IMG/VR virus record: IMGVR_UViG_3300045988_053840
Source: a virus
Length of the DNA stretch: 58,062 nucleotides
Reading direction: 5' to 3' (one strand)
The notes beneath the pieces are model-generated. The model did not search any database, had not been told where the DNA came from, and saw only the letters and a list, made by a program, of their open reading frames with translations. Position numbers and translations under genes: made by a program. Below are positions 24,407-48,285 of this stretch, one piece after another (position 1 is the stretch's first letter; every line of letters starts with the position of its first letter).

Positions 24407-24435
24407 TTGACAAATACTTTTTTATGTATTACAAT
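24407..24435 (+). promoter_or_regulatory. Early promoter P3 (TTGACA-17-TACAAT)
   Basis: TTGACA at 24407-24412, TACAAT at 24430-24435. Confidence 0.65.
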
Positions 24436-24702: not shown

Positions 24703-24707
24703 AATAT

Positions 24708-24779
24708 AGCCCTTTCGCCAAGTGGTAAGGCACGAGATTTTGCTTCTCGCATCCGTTGGTTCGAATCCAACAAGGGCTG
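24708..24779 (+). tRNA. tRNA-Gln (anticodon TTG), no encoded CCA
   Basis: Manual fold: acceptor agccctt/aagggct, D arm gcc-aagtggtaa-ggc, anticodon arm cgaga-ttTTGct-tctcg, T arm gttgg-ttcgaat-ccaac. The D loop matches bacterial tRNA-Gln. Confidence 0.8.
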
Positions 24780-24845
24780 TTTATAAGATATTAAATCTTA
24801 TAAGAAACTAAAAACACTAAAAACATTTAAGAAAGGAATTAAAAC

Positions 24846-25529
24846 ATGGGAAGAATTAACTATGATGATGTAGACAAGTATGGTGGTTCAGACAGTGAGT
24901 TTTTAAAACTTGAGAATGATGGTGACATGGTAACAGCACAGCTTCTTGTATCTGATATGGAAGATGTTGATATTTATGCTTGTCATCAGGCTGTTGTCGG
25001 TAAGTGGGATGATGGAAATGATAAGACAAGATTTGTAAATTGTCTTAGAAACTATGATGACCCTATTGATGTATGCCCTATGTGTGCCGCAGGATTAAAG
25101 ACACAGGTGGTAATGATGTTGGCTATGGTTGACCAGCAGGATGCAAAGGTTAAGATATGGAACAGAGGAAAGACTTTCATTCCTAAGATTAAGAATCTTG
25201 TAAACCGCTGGGGAGATATGCGTATGCAACCAGTAGATATTATTCGTAATGGTAAGAAAGGTGATAAGAAAACCAAGTATGATATACAGGTATCTCCAGC
25301 AAAGCCTATTGATATCAGTAATTTTGAAAAGCCAGAATTTTTAGGTGGTTATATTATGGATAAGTCAGCTGATGAAATGCAGGAATATCTTGATACAGGT
25401 TCATTTCCTGATACAGATAATACAGATACTAATCAGGAAGATAATACACAGGTAAGACGCAGAAACACTGAACCACTTCCATCAAGAAGAGGAGCAAGCA
25501 GAGCAACAAGCAGAAGGGCAGGTATGTAA
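24846..25529 (+). CDS. Single-stranded DNA-binding protein, T4 gp32-like (putative)
   Basis: Zn-finger-like C...H...CPMC, OB-like central region and a charged C-terminal tail. It sits among replication genes. Confidence 0.4.
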   Translation: MGRINYDDVDKYGGSDSEFLKLENDGDMVTAQLLVSDMEDVDIYACHQAVVGKWDDGNDKTRFVNCLRNYDDPIDVCPMCAAGLKTQVVMMLAMVDQQDAKVKIWNRGKTFIPKIKNLVNRWGDMRMQPVDIIRNGKKGDKKTKYDIQVSPAKPIDISNFEKPEFLGGYIMDKSADEMQEYLDTGSFPDTDNTDTNQEDNTQVRRRNTEPLPSRRGASRATSRRAGM

Positions 25530-25530
25530 T

Positions 25531-25842
25531 ATGAAAAAATTATTTATTAGTCAGCCAATGAGAGATAAGACAGATGAGGAAATTAAGTCAGAAAGAAATA
25601 AAATTATACAGAGAGTAAAAGAAGGATATCCAAACGAGGATATAGAAGTGATTGACTCTTTCTTTGAAAATGCACCACATGATGCAAAGCCATTGTGGTT
25701 TTTGGGTAAGTCTTTGGAATTACTTTCAACTGCCGACATCGCATACTTTGCTAATGGTTGGGAAAATTATAGAGGTTGTAAGATTGAAAATCAGTGTGCC
25801 ATTGCATACGGAATAGATGTAGTTGAAGATTATCATAAGTAG
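25531..25842 (+). CDS. DUF4406 / nucleoside 2-deoxyribosyltransferase-like protein
   Basis: KLFISQPM...ADIAYFANGWENYRGCKIENQCAIAYGIDVV matches the DUF4406 pattern as remembered. Confidence 0.5.
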   Translation: MKKLFISQPMRDKTDEEIKSERNKIIQRVKEGYPNEDIEVIDSFFENAPHDAKPLWFLGKSLELLSTADIAYFANGWENYRGCKIENQCAIAYGIDVVEDYHK

Positions 25843-25851
25843 GAGGATTAT

Positions 25852-28116
25852 ATGGCTTTATCATTTGCAAGACCAAAAAACAATGATAAGAGTATAGTTC
25901 AGAAGTCTAAAACAATAACTAATAGAACAAGTATAAGGGGCGGCGGTGGTAATAACATTGCCGCTCAAATACAGTCTATAGTGGCTATTGCTAACCAAAA
26001 ATTGGCAATACATAATGATGACTATATTCTTATTAGAGAACCTGACCAGTTATATGAGTATATGAAAGAAATGAAACAGGTCGGGGAGGGTGCGTTAGAT
26101 ACAGAAGCAACAGGATTAAATCCGTTACTTGTAGATATAGTAGGTGGTTGTATCTATACTCCAGGACAGAAAGCGGCTTATATTCCGATTAATCATAAAT
26201 CTTATATAACAGGTGTAAGAACTAAAGACCAGTTAGATGAACAGACAGTTTCTAAGATTATGAAAGATTTCTATAAGGATATCAGATGGATTTTTCATAA
26301 TGCTAAGTATGATATTCGTGTATGTAGAAAAACATTAGGAATTGATATTCCACCTTACTGGGATACAATGTTAGCGGCTTATTGTATAGATGAAGAAGAA
26401 AGTCACAGATTGAAAGACTTACATCTTAAATACTGCAATAGCAAAGATACTGAATCACTCACATTTGATTCTTTATTCAAAGGAGTTACATTTGACATTA
26501 TTCCAATATCAACTGGATATTTATATGCCGCAGGTGATGCTATAAAGACATATGAGTTATATGAGTATCAAAAAACAATATTAAATAGAAGAGTATTATC
26601 TGGTCCTTATAATGTATTTTGGAATATAGAAATGCCACTTATACCAGTTGTAGCGGATATGGAAGATAGAGGGGTATGTTTGGATTTTGATGTATGTAAA
26701 AATCTACATGAAAAATATCATAAGATAAGAGAAGAAAGACAAAAGCAAGCTGATGAAGCAATAGCAATGTATCAGAATGAAATTGATACTTATAAAATGA
26801 AAAATCCTAATAATAAGCTATCAGACCCCATATCATTATCAAGCCCCACTCAGCTTGCAATATTGTTCTATGATATTTTAGGATTAGAAAGTCCAGATAA
26901 GAAAGCACCAAGAGGAACAGGTGAAGATATTTTAAAACATTTTGCACAGGGCAAACATAAAGATTTATGTGAAGCTATCTTAGGAATGAGAAATGTTGAT
27001 AAGCTGTTAAGTACTTATATTGATAAGATGCCTGAAATTGCTCTTGAAGATGGACGAGTACATGCAAGTTATAATCAGTATGGTGCTAAGACAGGACGAT
27101 TCAGTTCACAAGACCCTAACCTACAGAATATTCCTTCACATAATAAGGAGATTAGACAGATGTTTAAGGCTCAAGACGGCTATGTGCTTATAGGTTCAGA
27201 TTTTAGTCAGCAAGAGCCAATGGTTACAGCTCATTTATCAGCCGATAAGAAGATGCAGGAAGCCTTTATAAATGGAAAAGATATCTATGCTACAATAGCG
27301 GCACTTGCTTTCCATAAGCCTTATGAAGAATGTAAAGAGTTCAGACCTGATGGAACAGTCAATCCAGCAGGTAAGGAAAGAAGAAGTCAAGCTAAAAGCA
27401 TTGTATTAGGTATCTTATATGGACGACAGATTCCTTCAATCGCAGAACAGCTTGGGGTATCTACCAAGGAAGCTCAAGCCATATATGATAAGGTTATAGC
27501 TTCATTTCCAGCCCTTGGAAAGTTCATTGAAGATTCACAGAACATGGCAAGAACTGAAGGCTATGTGACTACAGCTTGGGGCAGGAGAAGACATTTAAAG
27601 GATATGCAGTTAGAACCTTATGAATTTAGTTATAGCGGAAAAGTTACTAACTTTGACCCTCTAGCGTTTGGAAGTGAAGTATCTACAGAAGTTCCAAAAA
27701 AAGTAAAGGATAACTATACTAAACAGCTTCAAAAGGCTTTTGGTTGGAAAAAGAAAAATGATATAATTCAAAGTGCTTTAGCTCAAGGAATTAAGATTAA
27801 GGATAATGGTGGATATATAGCACAGGCAGAAAGACAATGTGTTAATGCAAGAGTACAAGGTTCTGCCGCAGATATAACGAAGCTGGTAATGATTGCAATA
27901 AACAATGATGAGAGAATGAAAGAGCTTGATTTTCATTTACTCATTCAGGTGCATGATGAGGTTATAGGTGAATGTCCTATTGAAAATGCAAAGGAAGCAG
28001 GAGAAAGACTTTCTTACTTAATGAGAACAGCCCCAACTCATTTGATTAGACTTCCATTTAAGTGTGATGTAGATTTTACAAATAATTGGTATGGTGAAGA
28101 AGTGGAGATTGAATAA
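25852..28116 (+). CDS. polA: Family A DNA polymerase with 3'-5' exonuclease domain
   Basis: Exo motif ALDTEATGL. Pol motifs DFSQQEP, RRSQAKSIVLGILYG and QVHDEV. Confidence 0.9.
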   Translation: MALSFARPKNNDKSIVQKSKTITNRTSIRGGGGNNIAAQIQSIVAIANQKLAIHNDDYILIREPDQLYEYMKEMKQVGEGALDTEATGLNPLLVDIVGGCIYTPGQKAAYIPINHKSYITGVRTKDQLDEQTVSKIMKDFYKDIRWIFHNAKYDIRVCRKTLGIDIPPYWDTMLAAYCIDEEESHRLKDLHLKYCNSKDTESLTFDSLFKGVTFDIIPISTGYLYAAGDAIKTYELYEYQKTILNRRVLSGPYNVFWNIEMPLIPVVADMEDRGVCLDFDVCKNLHEKYHKIREERQKQADEAIAMYQNEIDTYKMKNPNNKLSDPISLSSPTQLAILFYDILGLESPDKKAPRGTGEDILKHFAQGKHKDLCEAILGMRNVDKLLSTYIDKMPEIALEDGRVHASYNQYGAKTGRFSSQDPNLQNIPSHNKEIRQMFKAQDGYVLIGSDFSQQEPMVTAHLSADKKMQEAFINGKDIYATIAALAFHKPYEECKEFRPDGTVNPAGKERRSQAKSIVLGILYGRQIPSIAEQLGVSTKEAQAIYDKVIASFPALGKFIEDSQNMARTEGYVTTAWGRRRHLKDMQLEPYEFSYSGKVTNFDPLAFGSEVSTEVPKKVKDNYTKQLQKAFGWKKKNDIIQSALAQGIKIKDNGGYIAQAERQCVNARVQGSAADITKLVMIAINNDERMKELDFHLLIQVHDEVIGECPIENAKEAGERLSYLMRTAPTHLIRLPFKCDVDFTNNWYGEEVEIE

Positions 28117-29273
28117 TGGAATTGTATTTAGCTGGTGTGGATAGAAAACATCTAATTAACTCTAAAAATGAAAGATTGGATGATACATTATATTCCAATG
28201 CTTTATTTAGCTATCTTCAAAAGAATGATATAAATTCCTATATATATAATAGGAATAACTTATATGATATTACGACTGATTTATTGAATAATAAAGGATA
28301 TTTTTATAAAGCTATGAGATTATATTTAGTAGGAGCTGATAAATTTGGAAAGGAAGAAGTGAAACAGTATATGAAACTTTATTTAGCTGGGATGGAAGAA
28401 TCTTGTGTAGATAAGATTGATTGTAATGCTTTATTTAGTTATATTGACCAAGGCAAATTACAATTTGATAAACTTAAAGATTTTATTAAACCTGGAAAAT
28501 TATTTATTGATTCAGGAGCTTTTAGTGCATGGACAAAAGGAGCAAAAATAAATGTTAAGGAATATATCAACTGGTTGAATGAAAGGTCTGAAGATATTCA
28601 TTTATGTGGACAGGTAGATGTGATTCCAGGAGATAGAGTATTTGGAGCTACTCCTAAACAGGTTAGAGAAGCGGCAGAAGCTACATGGGATAATTACCTT
28701 TTTATGAGGAAACGATTGAAAAATCCAAAAGCTCTTCTATATACTTATCATGTAGGTGAACCTATTGAATTTTTAAAGCGTGCTTTAGAGTGGACAGATG
28801 AATCAGAGGAATATATTCCTTATATTGCTTTAGGTGGTATGGTTGGAAAACCGGCTAAAATAAGGGATGTGTTCCTTGAAAAATGTTTTAGGACAATTCG
28901 TGAATCTAATAATCCTAATATTAAAGTTCATGCATTTGGCATGACAGATTTTGAATTATTAGAAAAATATCCTATTTATTCCGCAGATAGCACCAGCTGG
29001 ATTATGGTTGGTGCTATGGGTAATGTTATGAGTGATTTTGGAAATATAGCAGTATCTAATAATCAAATCCATGATAAGAATCATTATAGCCATCTTCCTA
29101 AAAAGGCTATCGAAGATTTTAATAAGATAATTGATGAATTTGGATTCACTTTAGATGAATTAGCTGAACATAGGGATAATCGTATATTATTTAATGCATT
29201 ATATATGCAGAAAAAGATTCGAGAATTAAATACAAAAGACAGAAAATTTTCTTATAGAAAAAAACTTTTCTAA
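28116..29273 (+). CDS. dpdA: DpdA-like DNA guanine transglycosylase (TGT superfamily)
   Basis: The LFIDSGAFSAW motif and a TIM-barrel-like pattern, adjacent to queC/D/E and folE. The N-terminus carries three in-frame M-x-LYL-A/V-G starts (28116, 28314, 28371). Confidence 0.6.
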   Translation: MELYLAGVDRKHLINSKNERLDDTLYSNALFSYLQKNDINSYIYNRNNLYDITTDLLNNKGYFYKAMRLYLVGADKFGKEEVKQYMKLYLAGMEESCVDKIDCNALFSYIDQGKLQFDKLKDFIKPGKLFIDSGAFSAWTKGAKINVKEYINWLNERSEDIHLCGQVDVIPGDRVFGATPKQVREAAEATWDNYLFMRKRLKNPKALLYTYHVGEPIEFLKRALEWTDESEEYIPYIALGGMVGKPAKIRDVFLEKCFRTIRESNNPNIKVHAFGMTDFELLEKYPIYSADSTSWIMVGAMGNVMSDFGNIAVSNNQIHDKNHYSHLPKKAIEDFNKIIDEFGFTLDELAEHRDNRILFNALYMQKKIRELNTKDRKFSYRKKLF

Positions 29274-29279
29274 AATCAC

Positions 29280-29308
29280 TTGACATTTTTATTTGTATGT
29301 ATTACAAT
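29280..29308 (+). promoter_or_regulatory. Early promoter P4 (TTGACA-17-TACAAT)
   Basis: TTGACA at 29280-29285, TACAAT at 29303-29308. The downstream leader is identical to P1 (acaattacattaaggaaagga). Confidence 0.7.
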
Positions 29309-29340
29309 ACAATTACATTAAGGAAAGGAAGTTGATAAAT

Positions 29341-29859
29341 ATGTATGAATCAAAACGAGACAAGACTGTTCATGCCAGAATAATAAAAGAGGATACTGAA
29401 AGAAAAACAGTTATTATTGAATATCTCTCTGGAAATAAAAAAGGTAAAAATACTTGTATCACAACTTCTACTTTGAAGAGGTGGTGGAACAAGGTAGATG
29501 AAAAGATATTCTCAACATCAAAGAATTTAGAAAATAATCCTGAGAAGGAAATACACAAAAAGAAAACTACAAAAATTGACAGAACAAAAGATATAAAAAA
29601 GATAGTTGAAATGCTTGTTAATGACTATGAGTATAAATACTATGATTCTGTTAAATGTTATACAATTTATAGTCAGGGAACAGTTATTGCGGAGGTTTAT
29701 CCTCGTATAAAAAATATTGAAGTTCGTGTAAAAAAAGTAAAAGAAGATTTTGATTCGGATGTTTTTTATAAAGATGGATATAAGTATTATCTTCCCGTTC
29801 ATTATTATGTTTCTTATGAAACAGATTATATTAAAATTATTAAGGACCTTTTATCTTAA
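29341..29859 (+). CDS. Hypothetical Lys-rich protein between dpdA and the deaminase
   Basis: ORF track 29293..29859; ATG 29341 follows AAGGAAAGGAAG. Confidence 0.5.
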   Translation: MYESKRDKTVHARIIKEDTERKTVIIEYLSGNKKGKNTCITTSTLKRWWNKVDEKIFSTSKNLENNPEKEIHKKKTTKIDRTKDIKKIVEMLVNDYEYKYYDSVKCYTIYSQGTVIAEVYPRIKNIEVRVKKVKEDFDSDVFYKDGYKYYLPVHYYVSYETDYIKIIKDLLS

Positions 29860-29995
29860 TCTTTTAATGGCTGTGATACCTGACAGCTGAGGTCAATATT
29901 ATGGAAAGTGAGGAAACCACAATGAAAAAACCAAGAGCTCCTTCTTAATTATATAGTTATATTATGATTATATAATTGAGAAAGGAAAGTTGAAT

Positions 29996-30460
29996 ATGAA
30001 TAATAAAGAATATATGGATTTAGGCGTTGCAGAGGCTACTGTAACTATGCATCAGAATATAGGAGGTCCATTTGGAGCAGTTATTGTGAAGGATGGAGAG
30101 ATTATTTCTATTGCTAGCAATACAGTTCTTCAGGATAATGACCCAACAGCTCATGCAGAAATGAATGCTATTAGAAAAGCTTGTAAAAAATTAGGAACAT
30201 ATGATTTAACAGGATGTGAATTATATGCTACTGGATATCCTTGTCCTATGTGTTTATCTGCTATCATATGGGCTAATATCAAAAAAGTGTATTATTGTAA
30301 TAATGTGGAACAGGCCGAGGAGATAGGTTTTCGTGATGATTTTATCTATGATTATATAAGGAATGGAAATCCGAAAGTATTAGATTTAGAATCTTGTACA
30401 ACAGGAAAGGGTTTAGATTTATATAATCAGTATGTAGCAATGAATAAGGTTATTTATTAG
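29996..30460 (+). CDS. CDA-fold deaminase, guanine deaminase (GuaD)-type
   Basis: GGPFGAVIVKDGEII...NDPTAHAEMNAIRKACKKLG...PCPMCLSAIIWANIKKVYY...GFRDDFIY tracks B. subtilis GuaD closely, as remembered. Confidence 0.7.
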   Translation: MNNKEYMDLGVAEATVTMHQNIGGPFGAVIVKDGEIISIASNTVLQDNDPTAHAEMNAIRKACKKLGTYDLTGCELYATGYPCPMCLSAIIWANIKKVYYCNNVEQAEEIGFRDDFIYDYIRNGNPKVLDLESCTTGKGLDLYNQYVAMNKVIY

Positions 30461-30471
30461 GAGGATTATTA

Positions 30472-31176
30472 ATGAAAGCCTTGGTATTAAATTCAGGTGG
30501 TGTAGATTCAACAACATGTGTTGCAATAGCTGTAGATAAATATGGCAAGGATAATGTTATAACAGCTTCTTTATATTATGGTCAGAAGCACGATAAAGAA
30601 TTACAGTGTGCTAAGAAGATAGCAGAATATTATGGTGTTAGACATATTGAAGAAGATATATCTAATGTAATGAAATATGCTGGACAGGTATGCTCACTTG
30701 TTAAGGGTTCTAAGGATGAAATCTTAGATATGAGTTATGCAGACCAGATTAAGCAGAATGGAGAAGGAAGAGTTGGTACTTATGTACCTTTCAGAAATGG
30801 ATTATTACTCTCCATTGCAACTGCTTTTGCAGATAGTTTATTTCCAGGTGAAGAAGTAGAAGTTTTCTATGGGGCTCATGCAGATGATGCCGCAGGAGAA
30901 GCTTACGCAGATTGTTCCCCAGAATTTGCAGATGCTATGGATAAAGCAATCAATATTGGAACTTATGGAAAAATCCATATCAACAGACCTCTCATTCACA
31001 TGAATAAAGCAGGTGTTGTAAAAACTGGATTAGATTTGAATGTTCCATATGAATTAACATGGAGTTGTTATCATGGAGGAGAAAAAGCTTGTGGTAAATG
31101 TGGTACATGTATAGATAGAAGACATGCTTTTGAAGCTAATGGTGTCAAAGACCCTATTGAATATGAGGAGCATTAA
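30472..31176 (+). CDS. queC: 7-cyano-7-deazaguanine (preQ0) synthase
   Basis: ALVLNSGGVDSTT PP-loop and C-terminal zinc site CGKCGTCIDR. Confidence 0.9.
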   Translation: MKALVLNSGGVDSTTCVAIAVDKYGKDNVITASLYYGQKHDKELQCAKKIAEYYGVRHIEEDISNVMKYAGQVCSLVKGSKDEILDMSYADQIKQNGEGRVGTYVPFRNGLLLSIATAFADSLFPGEEVEVFYGAHADDAAGEAYADCSPEFADAMDKAINIGTYGKIHINRPLIHMNKAGVVKTGLDLNVPYELTWSCYHGGEKACGKCGTCIDRRHAFEANGVKDPIEYEEH

Positions 31177-31286
31177 TGAGCTGTAAATTTGAGAATAAAA
31201 AAGATAAATTATTATATTGGGGCAGTTTGATTTTAAGAATACTTGCTCTTACATTATCAATGTATTTATATAGGAGGTTTGCTTAA
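31176..31286 (+). CDS. Possible 36-aa hydrophobic peptide between queC and queD
   Basis: ATG overlaps the queC stop (TAATG). MSCKFENKKDKLLYWGSLILRILALTLSMYLYRRFA; its stop lies 1 nt before the queD ATG. Under 60 aa, so absent from the track. Confidence 0.3.
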   Translation: MSCKFENKKDKLLYWGSLILRILALTLSMYLYRRFA

Positions 31287-31287
31287 T

Positions 31288-31638
31288 ATGTATTATGTAT
31301 CAAAAAGAATGGAAATAGCTGGGGCTCATCAGTTAAAATTACCTTATGAAAGTAAGTGTTCTAATCTTCATGGGCATAACTGGATAATAACTGTTCATTG
31401 CAAAGGTAAGGTTCTCACGGATTATGGAATGTTGGTAGATTTCAAACATATCAAAGAGGCAGTTCAAGAGAAATTAGACCACAAGTATATCAATGAGGTC
31501 ATAGACTTTAATCCTACAGCTGAAAACATGGCTAAATGGATATGTGATGAGGTTGATAAGATGTGTCCTATCCCTACCATTTGTTATAAGGTTGAAGTGC
31601 AGGAAAGTGAAGGAAACATAGCTGTATATGAAATTTGA
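31288..31638 (+). CDS. queD: 6-carboxy-5,6,7,8-tetrahydropterin synthase
   Basis: ORF track 31243..31638; ATG 31288 follows AGGAGG. EIAGAHQL...CSNLHGHNW motif. Confidence 0.85.
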   Translation: MYYVSKRMEIAGAHQLKLPYESKCSNLHGHNWIITVHCKGKVLTDYGMLVDFKHIKEAVQEKLDHKYINEVIDFNPTAENMAKWICDEVDKMCPIPTICYKVEVQESEGNIAVYEI

Positions 31639-31649
31639 GGAGGATTAAA

Positions 31650-32294
31650 ATGAAAGTAGTAGAAATATTTAAAAGCATTGATGGTGAAGGTAAGCGAGCT
31701 GGCTTACCTACCACCTTTATAAGATTATTTGGTTGTAATTTGAATTGTTCATACTGTGATACAAGATATGGATGTGAAGGAGAAGGATATTCAATCTTAA
31801 GCATTCCAGATATTGTTGCAACAGTAGAAAGATTCGGTATTCATTCAGTAACAATAACTGGTGGAGAACCTCTTGTACACCCAGGCATTAATAAACTTGT
31901 TGATATACTATTAGAAAAAGGTTACTGGGTTAATATTGAAACTAATGGTTCACAGTATATTGGAAAATTTCCAATAAATCCACTTCTATTCTTTACAATG
32001 GATTATAAATGTCCTTCAAGCGGTATGGAGAGTCATATGGATGTTCATAACTTTAGATTACTATCCAAAAATGATGTGCTTAAATTCGTTGTAGGCAGTC
32101 AGGAGGATTTGAATAAAGCACTACAAGTTATTGAAAAATATAATCCACAGGCACAGATATATTTCAGCCCAGTATTCGGTGAAATTGAACCTAAAGAAAT
32201 AGTACATTATCTATTAGAGCATAGGATGTATAATTGTAAAGTTCAGATTCAGTTACACAAGATTATATGGAATCCAAATGAAAGGGGTGTTTAA
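31650..32294 (+). CDS. queE: 7-carboxy-7-deazaguanine synthase (radical SAM)
   Basis: ORF track 31635..32294; ATG 31650 follows [41 protein letters not shown]. Confidence 0.85.
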
Positions 32295-32296
32295 TA

Positions 32297-32869
32297 ATGA
32301 TTGATAAGAATAGAATAGAGAAAGCAATCAAGGAAATATTAATTGCGTTAGGTGATGACCCAGATAGACCAGGACTTGTAGATACACCAAAAAGAGTGGC
32401 AAAGATGTATGAAGAAGTATTTGAAGGTATGAATTATACCAATGCAGAAATCGCAGATAAATTCTGCAAATGCTTTGATACAGATAATAATGATTTAGTT
32501 GTTGTACAGGATATTCCAATATTTAGTTATTGTGAACATCATTTAGCCCTTATGTATAACATGACGGTTTCTATTGCTTATATACCTAATGGCAAAGTAT
32601 TAGGATTAAGCAAGTTTGCTCGTATTGCTGATATGGTTGGAAAGCGATTACAGCTTCAGGAAAGAATAGGTTCAGATATTGCTGAGATTGTACAGATGGC
32701 AACTGGTTCAAACGATGTATTAGTAGTTGTACAAGGAGAACATAGCTGTATGACTGCAAGAGGTATTAAGAGTCGAGGAGCTAAAACCCGTACAGCTACA
32801 ATAAGAGGACAGTTTGAGAATAATGTGGATTTAAGAAAAGAAGCGTATTCTTTAATGAGTTTAAATTAA
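32297..32869 (+). CDS. folE: GTP cyclohydrolase I
   Basis: [16 protein letters not shown]...[11 protein letters not shown]...[23 protein letters not shown]. Confidence 0.9.
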
Positions 32870-32886: not shown

Positions 32887-33975
32887 ATGAAAGTAGTATC
32901 AAGCAGAATGAAAGACGCAGTAAACAAGGCAATCAAGGGTGCAGGTTTTAATAATTTAATACCTATAACATCTATGATAGGTATTAAGCTGGAAGGCGGA
33001 AAACTGAGATTATTCACAACAGATATGACTAATACATTATGTATCATCATTGATAAGGTGTCAGGTGTGGATATGGATATCACAGTTGATGCTGACAAGT
33101 TCGGGAAGTTGATTGCAAAGACAACTTCGGAGGATATTGAATTAATAGTTATTGATGATGTATTATCTGTTAAAGCTAATGGAACATATAAGATTCCACT
33201 TATATCTGATGAAGAAGGACTTGTCACATTTCCAGCTCTTTCAGAAACAAAGGGAAAGACAACTAATGTAAAGCTCACAAGTATTATGCAGGCATATAAT
33301 ATTAATAAGTCCGCACTTGCTAAGACACTTGAGAACCCAGCTCTAACAGGTTACTATTGCGGAGATATGGTAATATCTACGGATGCGAATGTTATTACAT
33401 TTAATGATTTCAAGATGTTTGAGCAGGATGAACCATTGCTTATTTCACCACAGTTAATGCAGTTATTAACACTCAATAAGCAGGAAGATATTAAGTTGAT
33501 TGTTGATAGGACATTACTCACATTTGTTGCAGATGATATGGTTGTTCAGGGTGCTGTTATGGAAGGTATTGAGGACTTCCCAGCTGATGATGTTAAAGCA
33601 TATCTTGATGAAGCATTCACATCATCTTGTAAAGTACCTAAAGATTTATTACTTGCAACTCTTGATAGACTTGCATTGTTTATTGAGCCTTATGATAAGA
33701 ATGGAGCATACTTCACATTCGGAAGAAAGGGTATTAACATTCACAGTAAAAAGGACGCTTCTACAGAGATTATCAACTATGTGGAAAGCAAGAACTTTGA
33801 ACCATTCATGTGTTGTGTTGATATTCCAATGTTAAAGGAACAGTTGCAGGCTAACCCGGACGATACTGTTAAGATTTGCTATGGAAATGAAAATGCTTTA
33901 AAGATTGAGAGCGGAAAAGTAACACAGGTTATAGCACTTCTTGAAGATGAAGACCTTGACAATATGACTGAATAA
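32887..33975 (+). CDS. dnaN: DNA polymerase sliding clamp (beta-clamp-like)
   Basis: 362 aa with a three-domain-sized beta-rich pattern. The genome also encodes clamp-loader subunits. Confidence 0.6.
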   Translation: MKVVSSRMKDAVNKAIKGAGFNNLIPITSMIGIKLEGGKLRLFTTDMTNTLCIIIDKVSGVDMDITVDADKFGKLIAKTTSEDIELIVIDDVLSVKANGTYKIPLISDEEGLVTFPALSETKGKTTNVKLTSIMQAYNINKSALAKTLENPALTGYYCGDMVISTDANVITFNDFKMFEQDEPLLISPQLMQLLTLNKQEDIKLIVDRTLLTFVADDMVVQGAVMEGIEDFPADDVKAYLDEAFTSSCKVPKDLLLATLDRLALFIEPYDKNGAYFTFGRKGINIHSKKDASTEIINYVESKNFEPFMCCVDIPMLKEQLQANPDDTVKICYGNENALKIESGKVTQVIALLEDEDLDNMTE

Positions 33976-34031
33976 GTATATACTTTATATTGTAAACCAC
34001 AAATCACTGTTTTGCCTCTTTCTTAATGAAT

Positions 34032-34067
34032 GCACCCTTATAGAAATATAGGGGTGTATTTTTTTTT
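34032..34067 (+). terminator. Rho-independent terminator
   Basis: gcacccttata (34032-34042) pairs with tataggggtgt (34047-34057), followed by a run of nine T. Confidence 0.75.
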
Positions 34068-34624: not shown

Positions 34625-34806
34625 AGGTATATGAACTACTGGATAAAATACCTACTCATTATCAAGCAATAATAAAATCTAGTAATAACAAATTTCTTAC
34701 AGCAGGAAGAATATTTGAGTTAGAAAGAGCAAAAATTTATTTGGATTCAGAGGTTAAAGAAATAAATATATATGATAACAAATTAATAATAAAAATAGAA
34801 AGGTGA
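34621..34806 (+). CDS. Hypothetical protein
   Basis: 61-aa ORF after GGAGGTGA. Confidence 0.45.
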   Translation: MKVYELLDKIPTHYQAIIKSSNNKFLTAGRIFELERAKIYLDSEVKEINIYDNKLIIKIER

Positions 34807-35612
34807 TTGATAAGGTGAGTAGAAGATTATTAAATCTAATCAATAACAATAAACCACAGCTCCCCGCAAATAAGAAATTTTTATCTGATGTTATGAGCTG
34901 TATTGAAAGAATGGAACAAGAAGGGAGAAGAACTGGAAGTAATTATTATAAGCCTTCTTCCTTGCATTGTATGAGAAATATGTATTTCACAAGAACAAAA
35001 GCACCACAAGACCCAGAAGTGGTAGAATATAATTCAACAGGAATGGCAGATACAGGAACTGCAAGGCATGAAGCATTACAAAATGCATTGTTGAATTTAC
35101 AGAAAATGGGATACGATTGGAAATATCTTGATGTAGCTGAGTATGTTAAACAGAAGCAGAAGTTCGGAAAATGTAAGTCTTTGATTGTAAAAGGCACACA
35201 GGGAGCAGAAACACACCTTATAGATACTGCATTGAATCTATCTTTTAGATGTGACGGCATTATAAGGAGGATATCTACAAATGAAGATTATTTATGGGAG
35301 TTCAAGAATGTAGTATCATTCAAGTATAATCAGTTGAATGACCATTGTTTAGAACAGCATCATAATCAAGTAATCTGCTATTGTACTGTACTTGATTTAG
35401 ATAAGGCTTTCGTGACATATGAGAATAGAGATATATGCACACTTGAAGTTCCTGAAGTATTTGAAGTCACACAGGATATGAAAAACTGGCTTGTAAACTA
35501 TATAAGTGAATGTGAAGGTTATGTGGAAAGAATGATAGCACCGCCACGAACAGAAGATACAAAGAATTGTAAATATTGTCCTTATAAAGGAATATGCAGA
35601 AAGGTAGGTTAA
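34803..35612 (+). CDS. PD-(D/E)XK exonuclease with Cas4-like Fe-S cysteine cluster
   Basis: N-terminal Cys (SSLHCMRN), a D...EFK nuclease core and C-terminal CKYCPYKGIC (C-x2-C-x5-C). Confidence 0.6.
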   Translation: MIDKVSRRLLNLINNNKPQLPANKKFLSDVMSCIERMEQEGRRTGSNYYKPSSLHCMRNMYFTRTKAPQDPEVVEYNSTGMADTGTARHEALQNALLNLQKMGYDWKYLDVAEYVKQKQKFGKCKSLIVKGTQGAETHLIDTALNLSFRCDGIIRRISTNEDYLWEFKNVVSFKYNQLNDHCLEQHHNQVICYCTVLDLDKAFVTYENRDICTLEVPEVFEVTQDMKNWLVNYISECEGYVERMIAPPRTEDTKNCKYCPYKGICRKVG

Positions 35613-40953: not shown

Positions 40954-41147
40954 TATGTCCATTATGTAATGGAAAATTAAAAGTAGTAGATACAAGGAAT
41001 ATCAAAAAAGATAATTCTATAATAAGGCGAAAACGGTGTTTAAACTGTGGAGCTTTATATTACACTAAAGAAACAGAGATTGATTATGCAAGTATTCAAA
41101 AAGAATGGCTTAAAGCCGTAAATGAAGGGAGATTAAAGAATGATTAA
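40950..41147 (+). CDS. NrdR-like zinc-ribbon protein lacking the ATP-cone
   Basis: MICPLCNGKLKVVDTRNIKKDNSIIRRKRCLNCGALYYTKE parallels the NrdR N-terminus. The whole protein is only 65 aa. Confidence 0.55.
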   Translation: MICPLCNGKLKVVDTRNIKKDNSIIRRKRCLNCGALYYTKETEIDYASIQKEWLKAVNEGRLKND

Positions 41148-41820
41148 ATTAGAACATGCAGTTTTACCTTCCCCAGAGCAAATGCAATTTGTTATTGAAG
41201 GTATGCGTAATCCAATGAATAGCTGGGATAACAGTGATAGTTATGTTACTTATAACATTAATTCTGATGAAATATTTGCATTAGGTAATAATGACCATGA
41301 CCTTATGCAGAGATTAGCTAAAGCAGGTACAGACCATAGAAAGTATATGCGGATGATGACAGTGTATGTGAGAATCACAGCACCTCTATATTGGTGGAAA
41401 GAATTCGATACTTACAAGGTTGGAACTGTTGCTAATAGCTGTTCAACTATGCACAAGATTCAGGAAAAAGAATTTACACTTGACGATTTTAGTTTTGAAC
41501 ATATATTAGATGATTCTGCATGGTTAGCAGATGATGGAAATTTAATAGGGGAGCTGTTATTGATAATATTGAATGGGGCTAGAGAAGATTTCTTGGAAAC
41601 TAAAGATAAAAAATATTGGTGGCAGATGATACAGTTACTTCCTTCATCATATAATCAGACAAGAAATGTTATGTTGAATTATGAAGTATTATCTAATATG
41701 TATCATTCAAGAAAAAATCATAAGTTAGATGAATGGAGAGAATTTTGTAAATGGATTGAAGGGTTACCATATTCAGAATTAATTATTGACAGTGAGAAAT
41801 TAGAGATTGTGGAGGGATAA
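41140..41820 (+). CDS. ThyX-fold protein with altered active-site motif
   Basis: DHDLMQRLAKAGTDHRKYMRMMTVYVRITAPLYWWKEFDTYKVGTVANSCS aligns by eye with the ThyX segment ...[21 protein letters not shown]. RHR is replaced by DTY. Confidence 0.45.
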   Translation: MIKLEHAVLPSPEQMQFVIEGMRNPMNSWDNSDSYVTYNINSDEIFALGNNDHDLMQRLAKAGTDHRKYMRMMTVYVRITAPLYWWKEFDTYKVGTVANSCSTMHKIQEKEFTLDDFSFEHILDDSAWLADDGNLIGELLLIILNGAREDFLETKDKKYWWQMIQLLPSSYNQTRNVMLNYEVLSNMYHSRKNHKLDEWREFCKWIEGLPYSELIIDSEKLEIVEG

Positions 41821-47413: not shown

Positions 47414-47923
47414 ATGACAAAAGAACAGGAACAGCTTGTAACAGATAATCATAATTTAATATATTATATTATAAATAATAAATATGGATTATCTACTGAA
47501 GAATATTATGATGTGTGTGCTATAGGTTTATGCAAGGCGACAATTACATATGACAGTTCAAAAGATGTAAAGTTTGCTACATATGCAGGAATATGTATAG
47601 AAAATGAAATCAAGCTAGAATTAAAAAAACAGAAAAAATATTCTGCTTCTGTGTATTCACTAGATAGGACATTCAATAATACATCAGATGGAACTGGGGA
47701 GATTTCATATATGGAAAATATAACAACAGGTTTATCTGCTTATGATGAGATACTTCCATATCAGTTAGATAAAGTATTAAATGCTAAGGAATATAAGCTC
47801 GTAGCTTTGACATTACAAGGTTATACACAGGTAGAAATCGGAAATATTATAGGAATATCACAGACTATGGTGAGCATGATGCTTTCTAAAATTAAACAGA
47901 AATTATTAAAAGGAGGAAAGTAA
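47414..47923 (+). CDS. Sigma-70-family RNA polymerase sigma factor (group 3 / sporulation-sigma-like)
   Basis: Region 2 YDVCAIGLCKATITYDSSKDVKFATYAGICIENEIK. Region 4 HTH LQGYTQVEIGNIIGISQTMVSMMLSKIKQKL. Confidence 0.8.
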   Translation: MTKEQEQLVTDNHNLIYYIINNKYGLSTEEYYDVCAIGLCKATITYDSSKDVKFATYAGICIENEIKLELKKQKKYSASVYSLDRTFNNTSDGTGEISYMENITTGLSAYDEILPYQLDKVLNAKEYKLVALTLQGYTQVEIGNIIGISQTMVSMMLSKIKQKLLKGGK

Positions 47924-48285
47924 TGTTAATATCAAAAGGAGATGTATATTGGGTGGATATGTCTAAGGTGTGGTCAGAATCGGACATACATGCACAGAAA
48001 GGCATGAGACCCTGTGTTATTATTAGCAATAACAAGAATAATGATAACAATTCAAGAGTTATTATAGTACCTTTGACAACTAAGGAGGATGATTTGCCAC
48101 AGCACACAATGATATGGATACACAATATTAAAAACTATGTTGTTCCAGAATGTATAACATCTATACCTAAAAACCTTTTAGGTAAAAAATATGGCTGGAT
48201 TAGTAGGAGAGCCTTTAAGTATGTTATTAAGGCGGTCAAGATTCAGTTGGGATTATGGGAAGGAGATAAGAATGAACGATATTAA
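47923..48285 (+). CDS. mazF: MazF/PemK-family endoribonuclease toxin-like protein
   Basis: KGDVYWVDMS...KGMRPCVIISNN...SRVIIVPLTTKEDDLPQHT matches the PemK/MazF signature. Its ATG overlaps the sigma stop (TAATG). Confidence 0.7.
   Translation: MLISKGDVYWVDMSKVWSESDIHAQKGMRPCVIISNNKNNDNNSRVIIVPLTTKEDDLPQHTMIWIHNIKNYVVPECITSIPKNLLGKKYGWISRRAFKYVIKAVKIQLGLWEGDKNERY

Follow-up and report, generated by a model that had tools for sequence, protein, structure and literature searches.

A guanine deaminase gene within a phage preQ0/DpdA DNA modification cluster and its possible role as a guanine sink

The virus record IMGVR_UViG_3300045988_053840 of IMG/VR (58,062 nt; this whole stretch is called the window below) is a phage genome of about 58 kb with 33% G+C, in which nearly all genes lie on the + strand and structural genes, a lysin, a replication module, terminase, portal and capsid are recognised. 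It is a gut phage of Clostridia-type hosts. Positions 25531-32869 form a portion of its replication module, with every gene on the + strand, and carry a DNA guanine transglycosylase (DpdA), four genes for synthesis of 7-cyano-7-deazaguanine (preQ0) and a guanine deaminase of the GuaD type. Megablast of this region against the GenBank phages gave no match. The preQ0/DpdA module is an already known kind of phage system; what is new is a guanine deaminase inside such a cluster, and we investigated its identity, its linkage to the module and its possible function.

DpdA and the preQ0 pathway

The genes on which the argument rests are listed with their best supporting matches.

28116-29273, + strand: DpdA1-type DNA guanine transglycosylase, 385 aa (phrog_887, 3.9e-49)
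29996-30460, + strand: guanine deaminase of the cytidine deaminase (CDA) fold, bGD/GuaD type, 154 aa (PDB 1WKQ, 4.9e-36; PF00383, 3.7e-27)
30472-31176, + strand: QueC, preQ0 synthase (TIGR00364, 163.5 bits, cut-off 150.3; PF06508, 9.7e-55)
31288-31638, + strand: QueD, 6-carboxytetrahydropterin synthase (TIGR03367, 93.1 bits, cut-off 89.25)
31650-32294, + strand: QueE, radical-SAM 7-carboxy-7-deazaguanine synthase, clostridial type (TIGR03963, 273.7 bits, cut-off 260.1)
32297-32869, + strand: FolE, GTP cyclohydrolase I (NF006826, 243.4 bits, cut-off 162)

An original prediction, made from the sequence without database searches, had read the gene at 28116-29273 as dpdA-like and as a member of the tRNA-guanine transglycosylase (TGT) superfamily. 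Besides the phrog_887 match, the protein is 37-41% identical to the enzymes of Bacillus phage Flasso and Streptococcus phages MS1 and Dp-1 and 33% identical to the DpdA of Pseudomonas phage Iggy (tblastn E values of 3e-51 for MS1, 2e-46 for Dp-1 and 1e-25 for Iggy). Neither a single-sequence nor a profile search with the window DpdA found a TGT or DpdA among PDB sequences. Its AlphaFold model has a predicted local distance difference test score (pLDDT) of 72, low only in the N-terminal extension, and the best 50 PDB matches returned by Foldseek are all tRNA-guanine transglycosylases (E value 2e-6). The modelled protein thus has the TGT fold, and the assignment made in the prediction is borne out.

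The possibility that the protein is an orthologue of the bacterial DpdA was rejected, as it scored 26.5 bits against a cut-off of 200 with the bacterial model NF041059; it is a phage relative of DpdA. In the Salmonella enzyme, the acid/base, the two residues reading the Watson-Crick edge and the nucleophile are Asp95, Asp130, His181 and Asp256 (PMC10164549). In two alignments of phage DpdAs, which include those of Dp-1 and Iggy, D132, D168, H212 and D291 of the window protein are invariant, in GuaD-linked and GuaD-free enzymes alike, with a spacing of 36/44/79 residues versus 35/51/75 in Salmonella DpdA. Because NF041059 aligns residues 236-301 to model positions 201-265, D291 is consistent with the nucleophile.

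The 5' end of dpdA (28116-28445) holds three direct copies of ATG-x-LYLAG (at 28116, 28314 and 28371) and two of NALFSY (at 28192 and 28420). The N-terminal stretch of about 90 aa arose by internal duplication of the first barrel-strand motif (LYLAG...NALFSY). Relatives have from 0 to 4 copies; disorder or helix is predicted for the extension (pLDDT <50).

FolE, QueD, QueE and QueC, named in the prediction as a preQ0 route, each exceed the curated NCBIfam cut-off, and the pathway is complete. The CSNLHGH of QueD fits the catalytic CxxxHGH motif, which rules out the DpdL variant of this family (described in PMC10516641). In QueE, for which an alternative TTG start exists at 31635, CNLNCSYC fits the Cx3Cx2C motif, and QueC carries no fused amidotransferase domain. 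Pfam and PHROG scans of the non-structural open reading frames (ORFs) of at least 75 aa, the structural-gene part lying outside those scans, revealed no QueF, ArcS, Gat-QueC, DpdC or DpdL/M/N; tblastn of the window was also without a match for QueF and QueT, ArcS and Gat being covered by the family scans only. The earlier statement that queF, amidotransferase and ArcS-like genes are missing agrees with these scans. Because no further tailoring gene was found in the scanned ORFs, the predicted end product, within the limits of homology detection, is dPreQ0, with preQ0 replacing some guanines of the phage DNA. By experiment, the DNA of Iggy contains dPreQ0 and that of Dp-1 contains dPreQ1, at about 1.7% of G (PMC6884629, PMC10484667).

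The dPreQ0 phages CAjan (of Escherichia), Rosebush (of Mycobacterium) and Iggy follow the same five-gene logic, that is, DpdA plus FolE, QueD, QueE and QueC without a tailoring enzyme (PMC6884629, PMC7544227, PMC10484667). The Iggy cluster, whose DpdA is homologous to that of the window (33% identity, 1e-25), also lies inside a replication module, next to DnaN and PolA. In contrast to the window, it has no annotated guanine deaminase, no counterpart of the 172-aa protein (unk172) encoded between dpdA and guaD, no leader mini-ORF and no 36-aa ORF. The isolate DpdAs closest to that of the window (37-41%) are those of Dp-1, MS1 and Flasso, and Flasso and Dp-1 share its backbone of PolA, que genes, DnaN, Cas4-like nuclease, RecA/UvsX and clamp loader; the order PolA...que...DnaN, Cas4 is common to the window, Flasso, Dp-1 and Iggy. 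Dp-1, MS1 and Flasso carry QueF (Dp-1 also QueT) and no GuaD, whereas the window has GuaD and no QueF was found in it. The bacterial Dpd system (DpdA/DpdB/DpdC; PMC10164549) uses the same transglycosylation chemistry with a matching residue spacing. Unlike it, the window has neither the DpdB ATPase nor DpdC, hence no dADG step, and its context is phage self-protection, not a host defence island.

The guanine deaminase and its linkage to the module

The 154-aa protein was said to track Bacillus subtilis GuaD closely, and all four motifs quoted for this are found. Its PDB matches are led by B. subtilis GuaD (1WKQ/1TIY, 4.9e-36), with the plant guanosine deaminase AtGSDA (7DBF) at 1.2e-29 and TadA at 1e-16 to 1e-22. 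A TadA identity was discarded, with 65.6 bits against an NCBIfam cut-off of 150 and a C-terminal extension of the bGD type, which we take TadA to lack. Seventy of the 154 residues (45%) are identical to those of the 156-aa B. subtilis enzyme, a domain-swapped dimer of the CDA fold, and the alignment is gap-free to residue 120. The window deaminase keeps F26, N42, H53, E55, C83, C86, D114 and a Tyr as last residue. The zinc and catalytic motifs are HAE at 53-55 and PCPMC at 82-86, and N42, D114 and Y154 align with N42, D114 and Y156 of B. subtilis GuaD. The two enzymes differ in setting, the window protein being virus-encoded in a DNA-modification operon, behind a leader mini-ORF, and its role would be by-product disposal, as opposed to the nitrogen and purine catabolism served by B. 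subtilis GuaD.

In the GuaD family, the hydroxyl of the terminal Tyr hydrogen-bonds N7 of the purine and the C-terminal tail caps the pocket (PMC9739398). N7 is the atom in which guanine differs from preQ0. A column-by-column comparison of seven que-linked phage GuaD lineages with 77 bacterial homologues found the residues for zinc, catalysis and substrate, as well as the C-terminal Tyr, intact in 7/7 lineages. Phage-specific active-site substitutions were looked for in the same comparison and rejected, as no column conserved in bacteria is systematically changed; the sole columns in which at least 4/7 lineages are unlike bacteria are position 72 (S/T) and position 145 (E/Q/A). Neither GuaD nor DpdA thus gives a hint of an altered substrate, and continued deamination of guanine by the phage enzyme is the simplest reading.

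Three surveys were used to assess the genomic linkage, and the loci pulled in by them are designated by L-numbers (L008, L117, L156 and so on). Two were searches of IMG/VR, one GuaD-anchored (23 strong matches, 42-97% identity; que or dpdA neighbours sought within 8 kb) and one DpdA-anchored (80 loci with 44 complete clusters; GuaD sought within 10 kb), together giving 77 distinct viral regions. In the third, the GuaD query was run against 185,579 bacterial and archaeal species genomes and the best 80 loci were examined.

Que or dpdA genes were present near guaD in 17/23 loci of the GuaD-anchored survey; the other 6/23 contigs have neither in the fetched flank. A survey of phage dpdA clusters for GuaD-like genes had been put forward with the original prediction, and co-occurrence indeed recurs, GuaD lying near DpdA in 29/80 loci, in 22/44 complete clusters and in 12/32 DpdA sequence clusters. 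In the pooled set GuaD occurs in 37 of the 77 regions, and in 31 of these 37 it is accompanied by linked dpdA or que genes. Conversely, que and dpdA genes are missing from the surroundings of 79/80 of the best bacterial matches (54-66% identical), which belong to Lachnospiraceae, gut Bacilli, Izemoplasmatales and gut Alphaproteobacteria; the lone exception, L034, is a copy of the window phage binned into a metagenome-assembled genome of Clostridia. These data strongly suggest that GuaD is enriched near dpdA among viral contigs. Because the identical deaminase protein is found with the same neighbours on 8 contigs from at least four sequencing samples, the lineage circulates and is no assembly artefact.

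The linkage does not depend on one arrangement. At least six gene orders were observed, with GuaD before QueC (window, L132), after QueC (L010, L014, L134, L176, L187), after QueD (L012), after FolE (L136) or a few kb beyond Cas4 (L148 group, L172). In the L148 group (L148:10001-11776 and L149-L155, L161, L162), two dpdA paralogues lie in tandem after folE, each sharing 37-40% identity with the DpdA of the window, and GuaD lies about 3.4 kb downstream of the pair. In L010, L016, L128, L134 and L173, GuaD stands beside DpdA and a transporter of the Vut_1/YhhQ type. Because QueD, QueE and FolE are absent from these loci, GuaD tracks the exchange step and not biosynthesis.

In 0/200 neighbour-joining bootstraps were the que-linked phage GuaDs monophyletic, although the clade of the window has 100% support. 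The L010 enzyme is 75% identical to a Lachnospiraceae GuaD versus 66% to that of the window, and the best bacterial match of the L016 enzyme reaches 67% versus 61% for its best phage match. Phage GuaD thus appears to have been recruited repeatedly from bacteria, a claim that we do not extend to a number of events.

The slot between dpdA and queC is itself variable, being held by GuaD in the window, by a DUF6884 gene in L117 and by QueF in L156. The backbone of L156 is 88-97% identical to that of the window (PolA 88%, QueC 97%, FolE 97%), and yet at L156:3868-6336 the window-type DpdA and GuaD are replaced by a GNAT acetyltransferase, a Dp-1-like DpdA (38% identity) and QueF. In L156, the transglycosylase and the accessory enzyme have been exchanged together as a cassette, the incoming pair being that of the Dp-1 type of cluster. 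This swap, with the co-occurrence of GuaD and QueF in 0/44 complete clusters, suggested that the two genes are mutually exclusive, an idea refuted by L012/13, L015 and L018/19, which carry both. DUF6884 genes adjoin phage dpdA in 12/77 regions (for instance L117:10897-11313, L010:6576-7280 and L128:5986-6486) and in L117 occupy exactly the slot of guaD. With a YaaA-like 'cantaloupe' fold, proteins of this family are putative DNA binders that flip a base (PMC11701544); the deazaguanine papers examined do not mention them.

Two further kinds of gene accompany these clusters. Transporter genes of the Vut_1/YhhQ type (Pfam 'putative vitamin uptake transporter') occur with dpdA in 25/77 regions (for instance L128:7070-7825, L010:8578-9270 and L187:11674-12354), often in modules without QueD, QueE and FolE, which implies phages that import the base rather than making it. 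Purine phosphoribosyltransferase (PRT)-like genes lie inside que clusters in 10/77 regions, 7 of them with GuaD, and directly adjoin guaD in two unrelated lineages (L012:8492-8875 and L187:12714-13277; best PDB match 1VDM, 4.5e-13, and E. coli XGPRT). They fit a disposal and salvage of free purine.

A literature search found no paper linking guanine deaminase to preQ0, or to queuosine and phage, and the phage deazaguanine surveys PMC6884629 and PMC10516641 never mention a deaminase. The isolate-based surveys missed the association because no GenBank phage record carries GuaD within a deazaguanine cluster. The best GenBank 'phage' matches to GuaD were set aside: L001 resembles a piece of bacterial DNA, with MurA, GNAT and phosphoglycerate mutase genes, and que genes are missing from H4 and H5.

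A possible guanine sink and competing explanations

The bacterial DpdA exchanges [14C]guanine into DNA (PMC10164549), and because it catalyses this reaction free guanine would be a competing substrate. We therefore propose, with a probability of about 0.55, that the deaminase serves as a sink for the guanine that DpdA sets free and that would compete with preQ0 if left in place. Starting from the gene identities, the conserved catalytic residues and the recurrent linkage observed above, we infer what the deaminase acts on, how it affects exchange and which modified base results, as follows. FolE, QueD, QueE and QueC would turn GTP into the free base preQ0, and DpdA, which would be co-transcribed with polA, would excise guanine from duplex DNA via a covalent Asp intermediate and insert preQ0. 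One free guanine would be released per exchange and, being a substrate of the second half-reaction as well, would compete with preQ0 and cause futile G-for-G exchange. The co-transcribed 154-aa enzyme, an apparently ordinary guanine deaminase of Firmicute-host origin, would turn this guanine into xanthine, which the Asp/His pocket of DpdA should not accept, while preQ0 and other 7-deaza bases should be spared by virtue of the contact between the terminal Tyr of the deaminase and N7. Modification would thereby become faster or more complete; in some relatives, a PRT encoded nearby would also return the purine to the nucleotide pool. As 7-deazapurines are poor leaving groups in TGT enzymology, insertion would effectively be one-way, and the issue would be competition, not reversal.

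Levels of modification by DpdA1 enzymes range from 0.1 to 30% of G (PMC10516641). With about 19,000 G:C pairs per genome, 10-30% of them replaced, the upper part of this range, and about 100 genomes, the guanines released per cell would be of the order of 10^5-10^6. This would amount to a sub-millimolar to millimolar concentration, and such amounts are well above the solubility of guanine and typical micromolar Km values.

The original prediction had offered for the deaminase destruction of the guanine released by base exchange, or shrinkage of the host guanine pool, and as an alternative action on a deazapurine. The comparative data favour removal of the released guanine over the alternative, because the GuaD active site is unchanged, the N7-reading Tyr is kept and the DpdA Asp/His residues are kept; the role itself is read from sequence. 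Several observations weigh against it. Guanine and (deoxy)guanosine specificity are inseparable by sequence in this family, as the match to the plant enzyme at 1e-29 illustrates. GuaD is dispensable, about half of the complete clusters being without it, including the close relative L117, and the characterised dPreQ0 phages CAjan, Rosebush and Iggy reach 16-32% modification without GuaD. Hosts of this type encode their own GuaD, so that it is not obvious what a phage copy would add. In addition, many survey loci come from the single IMG/VR sample 3300045988, and the counts are therefore not independent; low support at the deep nodes of the GuaD tree keeps us from putting a number on the independent acquisitions.

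Four other explanations were weighed against removal of released guanine. The enzyme could be an auxiliary of purine salvage that passes guanine, set free by host nucleic acid breakdown as well as by exchange, through xanthine, XMP and GMP to GTP, feeding both preQ0 synthesis and replication, the linkage then reflecting a shared GTP economy. FolE does consume GTP, the enzyme is indistinguishable from a housekeeping bacterial GuaD, and the PRT-like genes, which occur mostly in GuaD-carrying regions and adjoin guaD in L012 and L187, fit such a route. However, HGPRT or XGPRT can salvage guanine directly, deamination being an extra step; GuaD stays beside DpdA in base-importing modules without FolE, QueD and QueE (L128, L173, L134), where no GTP is spent on preQ0; and strong GuaD viral contigs without dpdA or que genes are few (6/23). 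We consider a pure salvage role unlikely, and it overlaps in part with the guanine sink. Distinctly less probable is that the enzyme deaminates nucleosides or nucleotides (deoxyguanosine or dGMP), lowering the dGTP supply or clearing guanine nucleosides in the manner of plant guanosine deaminase. This would accord with the AtGSDA match (1.2e-29), with the close paralogy of guanine and guanosine deaminases, whose specificity is strict but cryptic in sequence (PMC9739398), and with the nucleoside 2-deoxyribosyltransferase (NDT)-like gene of this genome. Against it, bacterial guanine deaminase is the closer match (4.9e-36), the nearest relatives (60-75% identity) are single-copy bacterial genes of the GuaD type, guanosine deaminase is almost exclusive to plants (PMC9739398), and the NDT-like gene is absent from all relatives. 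Moreover, exchange is post-replicative, so depletion of dGTP would harm the phage's own replication.

The cassette swap of L156 bears on another reading, in which the deaminase is a tailoring enzyme that acts on preQ0, 7-carboxy-7-deazaguanine or DNA-bound dPreQ0 to leave a 2-oxo base in DNA. In this near-isogenic locus the place of guaD is taken precisely by QueF, a true preQ0-tailoring enzyme, with DpdA swapped along, and GuaD and QueF never coincide in the 44 complete clusters of the DpdA-anchored survey. The GuaD-like enzyme and a matched DpdA would then make the undescribed base 7-cyano-7-deazaxanthine, adding a fourth kind of preQ0 tailoring to QueF, ArcS/Gat-QueC and DpdC. Both this product and the tailoring role are very doubtful, given that L012, L015 and L018 carry both genes, that the active site is unaltered compared to bacterial guanine deaminases, with the N7-reading terminal Tyr in all lineages, and that the DpdA Asp/His residues binding the 2-amino/N1 edge are unchanged. 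A cyano group at C7 would abolish the Tyr-N7 hydrogen bond and probably clash with the C-terminal cap, and the closed dimeric pocket of 1WKQ presumably cannot take polymeric DNA. That the deaminase is functionally unlinked, a host gene hitch-hiking in a recombination-prone slot of the replication module, is hardly credible: the variability of the slot and the many complete clusters without GuaD would fit, but GuaD recurs in 12/32 DpdA clusters and at six or more positions, the copies, which do not form a single clade, are intact and conserve every catalytic residue, the clade of the window (clade A) has a dedicated conserved leader, and bacteria lack the linkage of GuaD to que/dpdA.

Removal of a canonical competitor so that a non-canonical base wins is known from the dCTPase gp56 of T4 and the dATPase DatZ of cyanophage S-2L. 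These enzymes act on deoxynucleoside triphosphates (dNTPs) before polymerisation, whereas the competitor in the window would be a base that a transglycosylase sets free once the DNA is replicated; the literature searched holds no such case for base-exchange modification. Post-replicative exchange frees one canonical base per modified base, and how phages handle this by-product has not been considered before. The presence of GuaD in half of the complete clusters, often near a PRT or preQ transporter, suggests that supply and disposal of free bases limit modification. Most of these loci are from the one IMG/VR sample named above, and the bacterial relatives belong to Firmicutes of gut and rumen. 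If the guanine sink exists, it would explain part of the 0.1-30% spread among DpdA1 enzymes, co-expression of GuaD would be an easy means of increasing the deazaguanine content of phage or plasmid DNA that is engineered, and the principle of destroying the canonical competitor would extend from dNTP pools to free bases.

Transcription unit, leader and accessory genes

The remaining features of the region are as follows.

24846-25529: single-stranded DNA-binding (SSB)-like protein of the replication module
25531-25842, + strand: NDT-like gene, 103 aa (phrog_355 'nucleoside 2-deoxyribosyltransferase', 1.6e-15)
25852-28116, + strand: family A DNA polymerase with 3'-5' exonuclease, PolA (PF00476, 4.1e-89; PF01612, 1.9e-20)
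29280-29308, + strand: promoter-like TTGACA-17-TACAAT, 11/12 consensus match, 7 nt after the dpdA stop
29341-29859, + strand: unk172, two-domain protein of 172 aa (ORF; Pfam, NCBIfam and PHROG without match)
29922-29948, + strand: leader mini-ORF MKKPRAPS, 8 codons, with its own Shine-Dalgarno (SD) sequence, in the best-conserved block of the unk172-guaD spacer
31176-31286, + strand: 36-aa ORF with one hydrophobic helix, called by independent gene callers
32887-33975, + strand: DnaN sliding clamp (phrog_947, 2.2e-29), final gene of the unit
34028-34061, + strand: intrinsic-terminator-like hairpin, a 15-pair stem followed by TTTTTTT, after dnaN; likely end of the unit
34803-35612: Cas4-like nuclease of the replication module

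The stop codon of polA overlaps the start of dpdA, and the order PolA then DpdA is kept in 65/77 related regions; DnaN comes after FolE in relatives too. From this layout the likely transcription units are SSB, NDT-like, polA and dpdA in one, and unk172, guaD, queC, queD, queE, folE and dnaN in the other. The deaminase is consequently not the first gene of the que unit, as had been thought, since the promoter-like site lies upstream of the 172-aa gene. Identical promoter hexamers occur at 24407 and 34089; such promoter calls are consensus matches only, and their genome-wide number is no higher than in shuffled sequence.

Within the spacer between unk172 and guaD, the block 29905-29950 is better conserved than its flanks, and in 8/9 aligned relatives the mini-ORF differs by synonymous third positions only. 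The pattern is exclusive to the region upstream of clade-A guaD (17/197 loci). A hairpin at 29878-29893, upstream of the mini-ORF, has one compensatory change, and the downstream CTCCTTCTT could pair with either SD sequence of the spacer. The block may encode a leader peptide or act in translational control of the guaD-que unit. A conserved RNA structure in the leader was rejected as too weak: apart from pairs without any variation, RNAalifold showed just a single small hairpin with compensatory support. Rfam matched no family to the leader, and no preQ1 or purine riboswitch upstream of guaD or queC, at the gathering score or at an E value of 1 or below.

The lysine-rich 172-aa protein had been listed as a member of the cluster with its own promoter. 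The ORF and the promoter-like match stand, and membership of the system does not, since the protein is confined to one lineage. Its family is found in phages only and numbers about 60 sequences, all unnamed or annotated as phage. The N-terminal beta domain, in which T[LI]KRWW is invariant, is connected by a variable Lys-rich linker to an alpha/beta domain at the C-terminus; L117 and L156 combine this N-domain with C-domains unlike that of the window. Its AF2 model (pLDDT 81) gave no significant PDB match, the best being a YdhG/YjbR-like fold with an E value of 0.1, and in BFVD only uncharacterised or DUF5655 proteins were matched.

The hydrophobic peptide of 36 aa suspected between queC and queD is probably a real small membrane peptide, judging from its conserved frame, but not a core component. 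An ORF of the same length and position occurs in L009 (89% aa identity) and at L008:5913-6023, where 14/36 residues are identical by hand count and the frame is intact despite many substitutions. In other relatives it is absent (L005, L007, L021) or truncated, and this sporadic occurrence argues against its belonging to the module. The codons of its C-terminal YRRF overlap the ribosome-binding site of queD (AGGAGG).

As for the gene upstream of polA, described earlier as DUF4406 (NDT-like), the only match, PHROG 355, carries the NDT label. The DUF4406 assignment is not upheld: Pfam DUF4406 and Nuc_deoxyrib_tr gave no match at an E value of 0.01 or below, nor was there any NCBIfam or PDB sequence match. 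As tblastn was without a match in every related locus, the gene is an accessory of this genome and lies outside the conserved module.

Elsewhere in the genome, a 226-aa protein is encoded at 41140-41820 (phrog_6721, function unassigned there, 3e-77; Pfam scan without match). Flasso has a thymidylate synthase further along its module, to which the 226-aa protein showed no relationship. At 47414-48285, a sigma-factor-like gene (phrog_351, 2.7e-20) is followed at once by a MazF-like growth-inhibitor gene (phrog_1936, 9.4e-19), with no antitoxin recognised beside it. The only tRNA gene of the genome, tRNA-Gln(TTG) at 24707-24780, lies just upstream of the SSB-like gene and specifies a tRNA that we take to be outside the set carrying queuosine.

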